Assembly: GCA_033763775.1 (NCBI GenBank)
Contig: JANRJW010000008.1
Span: 7,256-71,255 of the forward strand
DNA from: Alphaproteobacteria bacterium
GTDB taxonomy: Bacteria > Pseudomonadota > Alphaproteobacteria > Rickettsiales > SXRF01
Direction: 5' to 3'
Length of the DNA: 64,000 nt
In this document: piece after piece, positions 10,450-39,396 of the stretch
Layout: each line of letters starts with the position of its first letter
Position numbering within the stretch: the first letter of the stretch is position 1
The notes under the pieces: model-generated
Database searches by the model: none
What the model saw: the letters and a program-made list of their open reading frames with translations, nothing else
Told to the model about the DNA's origin: nothing
Made by a program: the position numbers and the translations under genes

Positions 10450-10954
10450 CCGCTCGCTGGTTGTTGCTCTCCTGATCTCTCTTGCGCCGCTCACCGCGCA
10501 GGCCAAGCCTGCGGAAATCAGCCCGGCCATCAAAGCCGAGGCTGCTTATGGCAAAGGCGCGCTCACAAGGCTGATTTTCCATGCCTATGACGCCGAGCTG
10601 TGGACGGACGCAACGCCATGGTCGTATGACGCGCCGTTTGCCCTCACCCTCACCTACCGCATGAATTTCACCAGTGAAGAGCTGGTGGAAAAAACCCTTG
10701 ACGAGCTTGCGCGCATCCATGGTGATAAAAGCCGCTACCGCGATGAGCTTTATCAGGCGTTCCCGGAGGTCAAAGAGGGCGACCGCATCACCGCGCTTTT
10801 CCTGCCGGAAAAGGGAGTGCGTTTTTACTATAACGGGCAGAAAACCTCGATGATCCCCTCGCCCGCTTTTGCCCGCAAGTTTTTTGATATCTGGCTGTCG
10901 GATCAAACCTCCGAGCCGCGCCTGCGCCGCAAGCTACTGGGGCTGAGCGCATGA
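10442..10954 (+). CDS. Chalcone-isomerase-like family protein, secreted
   Basis: Start MRSRSLVVALLISLAPLTAQA is a signal peptide and overlaps the upstream stop. The C-terminal FARKFFDIWLSDQTSEPRLRRKLLG resembles the bacterial CHI-like family. Confidence 0.6.
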   Translation: MRSRSLVVALLISLAPLTAQAKPAEISPAIKAEAAYGKGALTRLIFHAYDAELWTDATPWSYDAPFALTLTYRMNFTSEELVEKTLDELARIHGDKSRYRDELYQAFPEVKEGDRITALFLPEKGVRFYYNGQKTSMIPSPAFARKFFDIWLSDQTSEPRLRRKLLGLSA

Positions 10955-12219
10955 GCCAATTAGTCGCGCGCGCGCAGCTGCTGCGCTACGCGCTGCTGGG
11001 AGTGCCGCTTGGGTTTGTCGGGCTACCGCTTTATGTGCATTTGCCGAAATACTACGCGGATTTTCTGCCACTGTCGCTGGCGGCCATTGGCTTCGCGATG
11101 TTTATCACGCGGATTGTGGACTGCGTGGCCGATCCTTTCATCGGCGTGCTGTCGGATCGTCTGGCGGCGAAGCGCCGGCTACTCAGCGTCGCCGCGGCTT
11201 TGGTGATGGCGCTGGGCGTCATCGCGCTGTTCTTCCTGCCGAGCTACGCCACCAGCGAGAGCGCCATGGGGCTACTCATGCTGCTACTTTGCATCACCTA
11301 CCTTTCCTTCAGTCTTCTATCGGTGAATTTTTATGCGGGCGGGTTATCGCTTTCCACCGACCCACGCGAAACCACGCGCATCTCCGCCTGGCGCGAAGGC
11401 GCGATTATTCTGGGCGTGCTGGTGGCTTCTGCTTTGCCGCAAATACTCACAGAGGGACGCAGTAGCGAAGAAGCCTATCATCTCTTTGCGTGGATCGCGG
11501 CGGGGGTGATTATAGCCGCTTTGTTTACTCTTAAATCGCCATCATCCATTAAAACACCCCCACCCTACCCACCCCCGCAAGCAGGGGAGGTAAATTTTAG
11601 AACTGTCTGGGAAAATAAAACGCTGCGCTGGATTTTTGCGATTTTCTTTATCAACGCCATTCCGCCTTCCATCACTGCGACGCTGTTTTTATTTTTTGTC
11701 TCGGATGTGCTGGGCGCGCCGGACTCAAGCGGCGCGTTTCTTGGGCTTTATTTTTTAGCGGCGGTACTCGCCATGCCGCTATGGGTGAAGCTGGCCGCGC
11801 GCATCGGCAAGCGCCGCTCGCTGATTGGCTCGATGACGCTCGCCATCCTTTCCTTCATCTGGGCGTATGGGCTGGATAGCAGCAATAGCACCATGTTTTA
11901 TGCCATCTGCCTGCTTTCCGGCGCGGCGCTCGGCGGCGATCTGGCGGTGCTTCCCTCGCTGCTTTCAGACGCGCTGAAAGGCAAAGAACATCAAGGCGGG
12001 CTGGAGTTCGGCATCTGGAACTTCATCAGCAAATTCACCCTCGCCATGGCCGCCGGCATTGCGCTGCCGCTGCTTGCGGCGCTGGGCTATGAATCAGGCG
12101 CACGAAGCGAGGCAAGCCTTGGCGCACTCTCATTTGGCTACGCGCTGCTGCCCTGCCTCTTTAAACTCGGCGCGCTCGCACTACTTATACTAAGCCCCTT
12201 AGAGAGGAAAAACCCATGA
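10951..12219 (+). CDS. MFS (GPH-like) transporter
   Basis: About 12 hydrophobic segments. The D-rich motif after TM2 reads RIVDCVADPFIGVLSDR. Both ends have 4-nt overlaps with the neighbouring genes. Confidence 0.72.
   Translation: MSQLVARAQLLRYALLGVPLGFVGLPLYVHLPKYYADFLPLSLAAIGFAMFITRIVDCVADPFIGVLSDRLAAKRRLLSVAAALVMALGVIALFFLPSYATSESAMGLLMLLLCITYLSFSLLSVNFYAGGLSLSTDPRETTRISAWREGAIILGVLVASALPQILTEGRSSEEAYHLFAWIAAGVIIAALFTLKSPSSIKTPPPYPPPQAGEVNFRTVWENKTLRWIFAIFFINAIPPSITATLFLFFVSDVLGAPDSSGAFLGLYFLAAVLAMPLWVKLAARIGKRRSLIGSMTLAILSFIWAYGLDSSNSTMFYAICLLSGAALGGDLAVLPSLLSDALKGKEHQGGLEFGIWNFISKFTLAMAAGIALPLLAALGYESGARSEASLGALSFGYALLPCLFKLGALALLILSPLERKNP
11554..11592. repeat. Partial CTCCCCC/GGGAGG-family element inside the MFS central loop
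   Basis: ACACCCCCACCCTACCCACCCCCGCAAGCAGGGGAGG resembles the right arm of the elements at 20789-20905 and 27807-27913. It translates in frame as TPPPYPPPQAGE. Confidence 0.6.
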
Positions 12220-20788: not shown

Positions 20789-20905
20789 TTCTCCCCCCGC
20801 TTGCGGGGGAGTTAGAGGGGGGGTGATTCACCCCCACCACTCGCCTAAGAATGTTGTCAAAACAACATTCAAGGCTCATTGCCTCCCCCGCAAGCGGGAG
20901 AGGTT
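20789..20905. repeat. CTCCCCCCGC...GCGGGAGAGG-family composite element
   Basis: CTCCCCCCGCTTGCGGGGGAG hairpin, then TAGAGGGGGGTGATTCACCCCC, an AT-rich core with TGTTGTCAAAACAACA, then CCTCCCCCGCAAGCGGGAGAGG. Confidence 0.85.
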
Positions 20906-20947
20906 AAGACTTGAATTTCTAGGCTCAGCGCGCTATAGAAGCGCTCT

Positions 20948-27785: not shown

Positions 27786-27806
27786 TGGTTGTCTTTCAAG
27801 TGATAT

Positions 27807-27913
27807 TCCTCCCCCGCTTGCGGGGGAGGCTAGGTGGGGGTGATATGGCTCACTTAATCTCATTCCAAATGAGGTCACCCCCCTCTAACTCCCCCCGCAA
27901 GCGGGGGGAGAGC
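27807..27913. repeat. CCTCCCCCGC...GCGGGGGGAGAG-family composite element
   Basis: CCTCCCCCGCTTGCGGGGGAGG, then TAGGTGGGGGTGA...TCACCCCCCTCTAA, then CTCCCCCCGCAAGCGGGGGGAG. Same architecture as 20789-20905. Confidence 0.85.
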
Positions 27914-33164: not shown

Positions 33165-33614
33165 ATGACCCAGATCTCCTTCTACCATCTGACCGCTACT
33201 GCACTCGATCAGGCGCTGCCCAAGCTGCTCGAAAAAGCCTATGGCAGCGGGCTGCGCGCGCATGTGTGGTGTGAGTCTGAAGCGCGAATGGAGCAGCTGA
33301 ATACGCTGCTATGGACGTATGATCCGGCAAGTTTTCTGCCTCATGGTAGTGAAAAAGAGCCGCATCCGGAGCTTCAGCCAGTGCTGCTTGGCACTGAGGA
33401 AAACGCTGCCAATCAGGCACCGGCACTATTCATCACCCACGGGCAGACGGTTGTAAATCCTACCTCTTTCGATCGCGTGTTCGATCTGTTTGACGGCAAA
33501 GATAGCGCCGCCACCGACGCCGCGCGCGCGCGCTGGAAGCATTACAAAGACCAAGGCCTCACCCTTTCCTATTTCAAACAGACACCCGCAGGCGGCTGGG
33601 AGAAGGCGGCGTAA
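33165..33614 (+). CDS. holC: DNA polymerase III chi subunit
   Basis: MTQISFYHL...LLEKAYGSGLRAHVWC is a typical chi N-terminus. The protein is 149 aa, and its position downstream of pepA is conserved. Confidence 0.8.
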   Translation: MTQISFYHLTATALDQALPKLLEKAYGSGLRAHVWCESEARMEQLNTLLWTYDPASFLPHGSEKEPHPELQPVLLGTEENAANQAPALFITHGQTVVNPTSFDRVFDLFDGKDSAATDAARARWKHYKDQGLTLSYFKQTPAGGWEKAA

Positions 33615-34349: not shown

Positions 34350-35981
34350 ATGTCCGCTCACCTGAATCGCCGCACCTTTGCTATCATCTCCCACCCTGAT
34401 GCGGGGAAGACAACGCTCACTGAAAAGCTACTGCTGTTTGGCGGGGCGATTCATCTGGCCGGTGCGGTCAAAGCCAAAAAAGGTGGCAAATCCGCAACCT
34501 CCGACTGGATGGCGATTGAGCAGCAGCGCGGTATTTCGGTCACCGCGTCGGTGATGACGTTTGAATATAACGGCCACACCATCAACCTGCTGGACACGCC
34601 CGGCCATAAAGATTTTTCGGAAGACACCTACCGCACGCTCACCGCCGTGGACTCCGCCGTGATGGTGCTGGACGGCGCGAAGGGCATCGAGGAGCAGACC
34701 TATAAACTCTTCGAAGTCTGCCGCCTGCGCGATACGCCGATTACCACCTTCATCAACAAAATGGATCGCGAAACACGCGAGCCGTTTGAGCTGCTTGATG
34801 AAATTGAAAGCCGATTGCAGCTTTCCGTCTGCCCGATCACCTGGCCGATCGGCATGGGCGAGCGCTTCCGCGGTTGTTTTAACCTTGTGAGCGACACGCT
34901 CTATCTGTTTGATGCCGGCGTAAACCCCTTCTCCCCCCGCCTGCGGGGGGAGCCAGAGGGGGTTGATCACCCCCCCTTCCCCCCCGCAGGCGGGGGGGTA
35001 ATAAAATATACCAGCGCAGATGACCCGGCGCTGGACGATGTTATTCCGGAAGCGGAACTGAAAAAATTCCGCGAAGAAGTAGCGATGGTTAAGGCGATTT
35101 ACCCACCCTTTAACCGCGAGCATTTCCTGGAAGGCCATGTCACGCCTGTGTTTTTTGGTAGCGCGGTGAATAACTTCGGAGTTCGCGAGCTGCTTAGCGC
35201 CATCTGCGACTATGCCCCCTCGCCCCGCCTGCAGAAAACCGAGACGCGCGAGGTGGCGCCTGAGGAGCCGAAATTCACCGGCTTTGTGTTTAAAATTCAG
35301 GCGAACATGGATAAGAACCACCGCGACCGCATCGCCTTTGTGCGGGTCTGCTCCGGAAAATATACACGCGGCATGAAAGTGCTGCATGTAAGAAGCGGCA
35401 AGACACTGGCGCTCAATAACCCTGTTTTGTTTCTGGCGCGTGAGCGCGAGCTGGCCGAAGAAGCCTGGCCGGGCGATATTCTCGGTATTCCCGGCCATGG
35501 CCACCTGCATATCGGTGATGCGCTGACCGAGGGTGAAAAGCTCTACTTCACCGGCATTCCAAGCTTTGCGCCCGAGCTTTTCCAGCGTGTGCGGCTGGAA
35601 GACCCGCTGAAATCCAAGCAGCTCAAGGAAGCGCTCACCCAGCTTTCCGAAGAAGGCGCCTCACAGATTTTCAAACCGCTCGATGGCAGCCCGTGGATTT
35701 TAGGGGTGGTGGGCGCGCTGCAGTTTGATGTGATTGCCTCGCGCCTAGCCGCCGAATATGGCGTGAAGGGCAGTTTTGAAGCCGTCTCCTACACCGCCGC
35801 GCGCTGGCTGAAAGCGAAAGACCAGAAAACGCTCGATGATTTCTTGAGCAAAAATAAATTCAGCACCGCCGAGGATGCGACCGGCCAGCTGGCCTACCTC
35901 GCACCAAACGCATGGCATCTAGAGCGCATTCAGAAAGACTTTCCCGAGATTGAGTTTTTAAGGACAAGAGAGAATCGGTAA
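34350..35981 (+). CDS. prfC: Peptide chain release factor 3, carrying a ~24-codon repeat insertion
   Basis: RRTFAIISHPDAGKTTLTEKLL, DTPGHKDF, NKMDR and FKIQANMD motifs. Confidence 0.96.
   Translation: MSAHLNRRTFAIISHPDAGKTTLTEKLLLFGGAIHLAGAVKAKKGGKSATSDWMAIEQQRGISVTASVMTFEYNGHTINLLDTPGHKDFSEDTYRTLTAVDSAVMVLDGAKGIEEQTYKLFEVCRLRDTPITTFINKMDRETREPFELLDEIESRLQLSVCPITWPIGMGERFRGCFNLVSDTLYLFDAGVNPFSPRLRGEPEGVDHPPFPPAGGGVIKYTSADDPALDDVIPEAELKKFREEVAMVKAIYPPFNREHFLEGHVTPVFFGSAVNNFGVRELLSAICDYAPSPRLQKTETREVAPEEPKFTGFVFKIQANMDKNHRDRIAFVRVCSGKYTRGMKVLHVRSGKTLALNNPVLFLARERELAEEAWPGDILGIPGHGHLHIGDALTEGEKLYFTGIPSFAPELFQRVRLEDPLKSKQLKEALTQLSEEGASQIFKPLDGSPWILGVVGALQFDVIASRLAAEYGVKGSFEAVSYTAARWLKAKDQKTLDDFLSKNKFSTAEDATGQLAYLAPNAWHLERIQKDFPEIEFLRTRENR
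34929..34999. repeat. Compact CTCCCCCCGC-family element inside prfC
   Basis: CTCCCCCCGC (34931-34940) pairs with GCGGGGGGAG (34943-34952), followed by AGGGGGTTGATCACCCCCC and CCCCCCCGCAGGCGGGGGGG. It translates as PFSPRLRGEPEGVDHPPFPPAGGG. Confidence 0.85.
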
Positions 35982-38031: not shown

Positions 38032-38108
38032 AACCCTCACCCACGCGCTTTGCGCGTTTCCCTCTCCCTGAAAGGGAGAGGGTCAGGGTGAGGGTCGCTT
38101 TGCGACCC
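38032..38108. repeat. CCCTCACCC/CCCTCTCCC-family element
   Basis: CCCTCACCC...CCCTCTCCCTGAAAGGGAGAGGGTCAGGGTGAGGGTCGCTTTGCGACCC. Its reverse complement closely matches 39297-39345. Confidence 0.85.
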
Positions 38109-39267: not shown

Positions 39268-39396
39268 CATTTTCGATTTAATCATGCACAGAGTTTGGGT
39301 CGCTAAACGACCCTCACCCTAACCCTCTCCCTAGTAGGGAGAGGGACACAGCGGCTACAGTGCTGCGGTAGAGGGTGCATGATTAAATCGAAAATG
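39268..39396. mobile_element. MITE-like 129-bp element with perfect 22-bp terminal inverted repeats enclosing a CCCTCTCCC-family repeat
   Basis: CATTTTCGATTTAATCATGCAC (39268-39289) is the exact reverse complement of 39375-39396. The interior carries GGGTCGCTAAACGACCCTCACCCTAACCCTCTCCCTAGTAGGGAGAGGG. Confidence 0.6.

Follow-up and report, generated by a model that had tools for sequence, protein, structure and literature searches.

An uncultured freshwater alphaproteobacterium carries a short G/C-rich double-hairpin element inside prfC, its gene for release factor 3 (RF3). We analysed this gene in a window of 64,000 nucleotides (nt) of contig JANRJW010000008.1, and coordinates are positions in this window unless a contig or locus is named. 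The source genome (G000; 1.87 Mb, 14 contigs) was compared with the sister genome G002 (GCA_947459535.1), with two other genomes of the genus (G001, G003) and with more distant relatives; the relatives are labelled as metagenome-assembled genomes of "Rickettsiales bacterium" or "Alphaproteobacteria bacterium". The prfC product matches solved RF3 structures with E = 3e-195, and its start agrees with that of the orthologue P0001, also of 543 amino acids (aa). Our data indicate that the element is probably a tolerated in-frame insertion that behaves like the palindromic elements of Rickettsia, a miniature without a nuclease gene derived from a cassette that encodes a DUF559 nuclease between triplex-motif (TM) type ends.

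The prfC gene and anatomy of the element

Table 1. Features of the window that bear on the prfC element.
Feature	Position	Strand	Description
Degenerate family hairpin	11569..11594	+	In frame in an MFS_2 transporter gene (10888-12216), encoding PPPYPPPQAGEV
Intergenic full-length relative	20789..20908		End unit, A/T-richer core, degenerate second end
Intergenic full-length relative	27806..27913		Both end units intact
holC empty site	33396..33424	+	29 nt, intact here; G002 has a DUF559 cassette of ~490 nt instead
prfC	34350..35981	+	RF3, 543 aa, host of the insertion; Pfam GTP_EFTU, EF-G_D2, RF3_C
G4 motif NKMD	34755..34766	+	Upstream landmark, residues 136-139; invariant columns N136, K137, D139
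Miniature element	34929..35005	+	77 nt, two inverted end units; in frame as residues 194-219 (FSPRLRGEPEGVDHPPFPPAGGGVIK)
End unit A	34929..34966	+	TTCT, C-block with hairpin H1 (34931-34952), loop CCA, mirror G-block GAGGGGG (34956-34962), T, TGA
Hairpin H1	34931..34952		CTCCCCCCGC (34931-34940), loop CT, GCGGGGGGAG (34943-34952); perfect 10-bp stem
Central palindrome TGATCA	34964..34969		Meeting point of both end units
End unit B	34967..35005	-	Minus-strand reading: TTTATTA, C7GC-CT-GCG7 (H2), AA, G7, TGA
Hairpin H2	34979..34998		CCCCCCCGC (34979-34987), loop AG, GCGGGGGGG (34990-34998)
G5 motif GSAV	35157..35168	+	Downstream landmark, SAV being residues 271-273; invariant columns G270, S271, A272

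The element consists of two inverted end units (Table 1). Written by blocks, unit A is CTCCCCCC-(GCCTGC)-GGGGGGAG-CCA-GAGGGGG and unit B is C7-(GCCTGC)-G7-AA-G7, the G7 that follows AA corresponding to the plus-strand C7 at 34970-34976, and the middle of the element (34953-34978) reads CCA-GAGGGGG-T-TGATCA-CCCCCCC-TT. Alignment of the ends across the genome yielded a terminal unit of ~38 nt, (A/T)TTCT-C6-GC-NN-GC-G6-AG-TTA/CCA-GAG6-TGA(T). A first-pass annotation, made from the letters of the window, had described a G/C-tract double hairpin with a perfect 10-bp stem at 34929-34999 in prfC; the stem and the double hairpin were confirmed in the sequence and the left edge was retained, while comparison with other copies showed that TAATAAA is part of the B end, which extends the element on the right to 35005. 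The same annotation had regarded the element as a compact relative of the two intergenic elements of Table 1, with the same order of ends and the A/T-rich core missing, and the end alignments agree with this.

The prfC reading frame is open across the element, and the insert is Pro/Gly-rich and about 24-26 aa long by translation, in keeping with the ~24 aa estimated at first. Four of the six frames of the element are open or nearly open. It contains six homopolymer tracts (C6-C7 / G5-G7) and no separate open reading frame (ORF), only TGATCA separating its ends. As RNA, an 86-nt stretch over the element folds at -62 kcal/mol (z = -6.2), and none of 200 shuffled sequences folded equally well. 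An Rfam search at the element gave no family at threshold, only sub-threshold matches to miRNA-like hairpins, and a promoter and terminator scan found nothing at the element, including no terminator-like site. An intein or a self-splicing intron was considered and rejected, since Pfam reports RF3 domains only, Rfam reports nothing at threshold and 26 aa are too few for an intein.

Insertion history in RF3

Among 58 aligned RF3 sequences, the window copy included, the segment is present only in the window protein and in P0001, the RF3 of G002 (98% identical), and the next relative, P0002 (525 aa, 93% identical over aligned positions), is without it. Within the genus the insert was found in G002 (locus L004) and is absent from G001 and G003. 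At the DNA level prfC has gained a net 57 nt relative to loci L001-L003, and about 20 nt of host sequence were lost at the insertion site, which is a variable loop among RF3 orthologues; comparison of filled and empty prfC alleles revealed no target-site duplication. The element is not an assembly artefact, because it was found in two independent assemblies, G000 and GCA_947459535.1. The peptide was also looked for in RF3 of genomes free of the family; it is absent from G001, G003 and L001-L003, and the insertion reading survives. The prfC genes of the window and G002 share 95.6% identity; 56 of their codons differ synonymously and 12 non-synonymously, which indicates a functional gene. Within the element the two copies differ by one substitution (34963, T/G) and by no change in length. 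Since both genomes carry the insert, the prfC copy is older than the split of G000 and G002; judged by this comparison of genomes, the element entered prfC in their common ancestor, after its separation from the two other members of the genus.

An independent in-frame pair of TM units, of ~100 nt and with a fold of -68 kcal/mol, occupies the same RF3 loop in another lineage (P0099, locus L123:501-2117), directly after TLYIFE. The TM pair of P0099 (73% identical protein) is a different element. The same loop has therefore been occupied twice independently, and the site is permissive or preferred. Two other groups of candidates were discarded. Long prfC matches in L011 and L016, suspected to be cassettes or inteins, turned out to be the match run together with the adjacent typA-like GTPase gene, and the RF3 inserts of P0039, P0008 and P0091 (SA(A/S)ADA..ARQ, near the border of domains I and II) are not TM-type palindromes and were rejected as family copies. 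Separately, a 10-11-aa insert (SASADAAARQA or SAEATARQGRF) recurs in some RF3 orthologues near the border of the G domain and domain II (L124, which is P0039, and L088 of G015); it is not a TM palindrome.

Place of the insert in the RF3 fold

The insert had first been assigned to the region between the G domain and domain II. This placement was wrong: the insert lies between the G4 and G5 motifs and therefore inside the G domain, in what we take to be the G'-like region of RF3. An AlphaFold2 model built on the 58-sequence alignment (mean pLDDT 74.6) matches RF3 structures at TM-scores of 0.7-0.8 and puts the insert at the turn between strands 183-187 and 217-220. Residues 191-214 have a pLDDT below 50 and the flanking blocks are confident. 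The insert is thus modelled as a disordered loop at the tip of a strand-turn-strand, away from the GTPase motifs, and it probably also points away from the ribosome. The gene had further been classed as essential, which we do not follow, as E. coli can live without RF3.

The repeat family in the genome and its relatives

The hairpin core CCCCCGCNNGCGGGGG occurs seven times in the window, with 0.05 occurrences expected. The whole of G000 holds 18 exact cores (a reversed control pattern gave 0) and G002 holds 27; G001 and G003 have none. The distribution is uneven further afield: G015 has 61 cores and G034 has 26, but most of the other distant relatives lack them. The A and B end types of the prfC element also flank intergenic elements of ~105-150 nt: unit A, in its G002 version, is identical at 40/40 positions to the right end of an intergenic element of G000 (C14:213118-213152), and unit B agrees at 38/41 with the B end of L103, an element present in G002 only. 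About 20 family loci were found in G000, roughly half of them in frame in genes. Pfam confirmed the genes hosting in-frame copies as prfC, lpd, serS, lipB, maf, PPDK, ubiE, ileS, ffh and the gene of the MFS_2 transporter. The peptides encoded by the family are variants of SPRLRGE, PPAGGG, PPQAGG and PPACGG, and hence all frames are used by family copies.

A second order of blocks, C7-linker-hairpin-linker-G7 (~46 nt), was observed in G000 in ffh (C13:209060-209103), serS (C3:158161-158191), maf (C10:120458-120504) and ileS (C13:166872-166911). It corresponds to two back-to-back units with one common hairpin, an order that a circularised or tandem element would show at its junction. IleS itself (G000 C13:166140-170192, L098) has 1351 aa and at least four in-frame inserts of at least three repeat families, among them a unit of one hairpin (IPPAGGGDVRGG), a DUF559 cassette and an element of the GTCATCCC...GGGATC type that is present two or three times and is read as VIPSEA(G/E)GSKD.

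DUF559 cassettes with the same ends

The ends described above also bracket a coding cassette. This link, like that to the BoxC/TM repeats discussed below, is not part of the first-pass annotation. Its layout is an end unit, TGA, an ORF for a DUF559 nuclease (Vsr-like, PD-(D/E)xK) without its own start or stop, TCA, and an inverted end unit. In G000, DUF559 domains lie in frame in lipB (Pfam E = 3e-34) and ileS (E = 6e-40), both flanked by hairpins of C-runs and G-runs, and the ends of the lipB cassette are related to the A and B ends of prfC. In G002, an in-frame DUF559 cassette of ~490 nt brings holC (L004:1267-2265) to 332 aa. Its left end is of type B (TTAC7GCCTGCG7-C-G8TGA) and matches the prfC B end at 37/41 positions; its right end is of type A (TCAC6-TCTAA-CTC6GCAAGCG6AGAA) and matches the prfC A end at 36/41. 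TM-type inverted ends were found on all five cassettes examined in the two genomes (lipB, ileS, holC, L120 and L121), the G002-only cassettes L120 (intergenic) and L121 (at the start of gatB) having other TM-type ends. The prfC element contains no DUF559 ORF between its ends and is hence a nuclease-less derivative rather than a cassette. Within the collection of papers searched, none connects DUF559 with palindromic repeats, triplex repeats or insertion in frame.

Two cassette sites showed further particulars. The 21 nt just upstream of the holC junction are unusually diverged between G000 and G002. The L121 cassette at the gatB start duplicates 24 nt of the gene start (G002:C44:8300-9700 compared with G000 C12:42968-42991); the nuclease ORF uses the gatB start codon and ends at a TGA stop, and gatB restarts at an overlapping ATG (TCATGATG).

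Recent mobility and tract lengths

Six mini-elements are present in G002 only, with net gains of 81, 33, 33, 42, 30 and 48 nt, all multiples of three, and three DUF559 cassettes are likewise confined to G002. Conversely, the ffh insert is found in G000 only, being absent from G002, G003 and G001. Presence and absence thus occur in both directions, which shows that copies of the family were mobile in each lineage after G000 and G002 split. For insertions within genes the net length change was always a multiple of three. In the filled/empty pairs (prfC, holC, ffh and L103-L117), about 10-30 adjoining host nucleotides were replaced by unrelated sequence, and no target-site consensus was evident among the empty sites compared. 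The RAYT family (Y1 transposase, PF01797) had no match in G000 or G002 in a search whose control matched in 6 of 14 genomes.

The lengths of the homopolymer tracts were also compared between G000 and G002. The orthologous intergenic copy at 20789 has tract lengths of G5/G7 and G7/G6, and the maf copy has G7/G8 together with a compensating 2-nt indel; as this change is compensated, selection evidently keeps the frame. Tract slippage thus appears to happen over evolutionary time and to be corrected in genes.

Comparison with known systems

The Rickettsia palindromic elements (RPEs; Ogata et al. 2000, summarised in PMC10969869) are palindromic repeats with copies in frame inside unrelated genes. 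As with RPEs, the family is dispersed and palindromic, about half of its copies lie in frame in unrelated housekeeping genes, the frame is kept, the extra peptide falls at a fold-compatible site and the genome of the alphaproteobacterial host is small. Unlike RPEs, which are about 150 nt long, the prfC element has 77 nt and G/C homopolymer blocks instead of a conserved peptide-coding ORF. The likeness drawn here is one of behaviour, by description, and the prfC element is not filed as an RPE member. A further difference is that the ends of the window family are shared with a nuclease-coding cassette; we know of no coding partner for RPEs.

In its architecture the element resembles the BoxC/PIT/TMECO intrastrand triplex motifs, which were reported from E. 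coli and more than 260 genomes (Holder et al. 2015, PMC4666352). These have type A units with a TTA loop and type B units with a CCG loop, arranged as inverted A+B pairs; in E. coli K-12 they are strictly intergenic and have no associated mobility gene, and E. coli loci that carry them are unusually rearranged between strains (PMC4666352). The window family likewise has a pyrimidine block, a loop, a complementary purine block, a 3-nt loop and a mirror purine block in inverted A+B pairs, a likeness of architecture only. In layout it can be compared with the E. coli hrpB-mrcB pair, TTCT-CCCTCTCCC-TGTG-GGAGAGGG-CCG-GGGTGAGGG-CATCA...GTTCA-CCCTCACCC-TAA-CCCTCTCCC-TCAA-GGGAGAGGG, which begins with TTCTCC and has the inner edges CATCA/GTTCA, as in the layout of the window family. 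The prfC units differ from TMECO in being homopolymer blocks (C6-7/G6-7 with a GC clamp), and the strict TMECO consensus (CCCTCNCCC N3-6 GGGNGAGGG N3 GGGNGAGGG) does not match at the prfC element. Elsewhere in G000 this consensus has 27 matches, two of them in the window (38060-38094 and 39311-39345); a heuristic that works without a Pfam check places 12 of these 27 well within ORFs of 200 aa or more, where they are read as SPSPFQGEGRGEG or NPHPxPLPERERG. In contrast to the intergenic TMECO of E. coli, the prfC copy and at least nine others are in frame in genes, and DUF559 ORFs are bracketed. E. coli K-12 itself has a DUF559 protein (RefSeq), YcjD, which is 43% identical to the domain of the lipB cassette, Pro/Ser tail included. 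The stop codon of ycjD falls within the loop of a degenerate TM-like hairpin (L128, NC_000913.3 1351040-1351830), and a duplicated piece of the ycjD 3' end reaches TMECO no. 9, about 170 nt downstream. This arrangement is in line with the reading of BoxC repeats as the ends of a DUF559 cassette.

Two further classes of mobile DNA offer partial parallels. Homing endonucleases are carried by inteins and group I introns, and include Vsr-like EDxHD nucleases such as I-Bth0305I. As in these carriers, a small nuclease gene lies inside conserved host genes that are left intact, and its presence is polymorphic between close relatives; unlike them, the window family has no RNA or protein splicing machinery, the insert presumably being simply translated, and the prfC copy is devoid of a nuclease. 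Miniature inverted-repeat transposable elements such as Correia, ERIC and Nezha are similarly short, multicopy and without an enzyme of their own, and share with the window family terminal inverted ends (here of ~38 nt) and a longer coding relative with the same ends. The window family differs in that no target-site duplication was seen in the filled/empty pairs, that the insertions replace host nucleotides at the junctions, and that the protein of the coding relative is a Vsr-like nuclease and not a known transposase.

Origin and role of the prfC element

We propose that the prfC element is a non-autonomous miniature in which a type A and a type B end unit are fused at TGATCA, such as a cassette would leave after losing the nuclease ORF that separates TGA from TCA. 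Its insertion displaced about 20 nt of the variable RF3 loop, leaving no target duplication. In the frame used, which has no stop, the C-runs would be translated as Pro and the G-runs as Gly, so that read-through would give a 26-aa Pro/Gly-rich stretch, and RF3 would stay functional with it, as purifying selection on the gene suggests. The most likely role of the element is that of a tolerated selfish passenger, neither a regulator nor a switch. Whether the DUF559 nuclease moves these ends is a narrower matter, on which we stay somewhat short of an even judgement. More tentative still is a broader reading, in which the BoxC/PIT/TM repeats would be the terminal units and nuclease-less miniatures of a mobile cassette with the DUF559 (Vsr-like) nuclease as its only protein; they would survive inside genes by means of ends translated as Pro and Gly, and the prfC element would be their minimal form.

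Several observations weigh against this interpretation or parts of it. No target-site duplication was seen in the filled/empty pairs (prfC, holC, ffh and L103-L117), and the replacement of host nucleotides at the junctions fits no standard transposition model. DUF559 was detected in all seven hairpin-rich relatives and in 16 of 34 others by a genome search that misses some members (the E. coli control was not matched although RefSeq annotates YcjD as DUF559); as 23 of 41 relatives thus have DUF559, the co-occurrence carries little weight (a hand count gives about p = 0.01). Only two DUF559 copies are present in G000, with 50% identity between them, and the ends of the lipB cassette are decayed, so the nuclease could travel with the hairpin ends as a passenger instead of driving them. 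Similarity scores between sequences with G/C-runs are inflated by composition. In addition, we infer both the translation of the prfC insert and its neutrality, and the mRNA structure of -62 kcal/mol, together with the PPFPP motif, could affect translation, and a regulatory side-effect is conceivable.

The idea that the segment is a native, G/C-rich palindromic variable loop of RF3, or an assembly artefact, and not a mobile insertion can be regarded as effectively refuted. The region does vary among RF3 orthologues, and the downstream GGGVI is similar to the ancestral GGAVI; against this stand the identities of 40/40 and 37-38/41 nt to element ends elsewhere in G000 and G002, a hairpin count far above chance, the absence of the segment from all close orthologues and its presence in two independent assemblies. 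That the hairpin or peptide has been exapted for RF3 or its expression, for instance as a ribosome-pausing mRNA structure tuning the RF3 level or as a surface loop contacting the ribosome or a partner, is improbable. The very stable RNA fold and the independent hit in the same loop of another lineage would suit such a function, as would the single change in 77 nt, where 3.4 are expected at the gene divergence of 4.4%; this deficit is not significant, however, the insert is modelled as disordered, genomes of the same genus manage without it, and the spread of the family over at least ten unrelated genes as well as intergenic DNA speaks against a role tied to one gene.

The first-pass annotation had also pointed to the homopolymer tracts as slippage-prone sites, which would make prfC a contingency locus toggled by slippage in its C6-C7 / G5-G7 tracts. 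Six such tracts do lie within the coding region, and tract lengths vary in orthologous copies elsewhere, namely in the 20789 copy and in maf. All six prfC tracts are nevertheless equal in length in G000 and G002, in a gene that has diverged by 4.4%, the tracts are a family-wide trait of the end units and not specific to prfC, and the length change in maf is compensated, which shows selection for keeping the frame. Furthermore, tracts of 5-7 are short for efficient phase switching. We therefore consider phase variation of prfC very unlikely, and the tolerated in-frame insertion remains the preferred account of the element.

In-frame selfish palindromes are textbook knowledge only for Rickettsia, and they are now seen in a free-standing, uncultured freshwater lineage of alphaproteobacteria, where this habit affects RF3, Ffh, SerS, IleS and others. 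Annotated proteins become longer through such inserts, as in the IleS of 1351 aa, and acquire Pro/Gly stretches that pass for low-complexity regions but are spurious. To protein science the inserts show where a protein naturally accepts extra sequence, as in the RF3 loop, which was hit twice independently. Moreover, the ends shared with a DUF559 ORF provide a concrete candidate for the nature and the mover of the BoxC/PIT/TM repeats, which have been unexplained since the 1990s.

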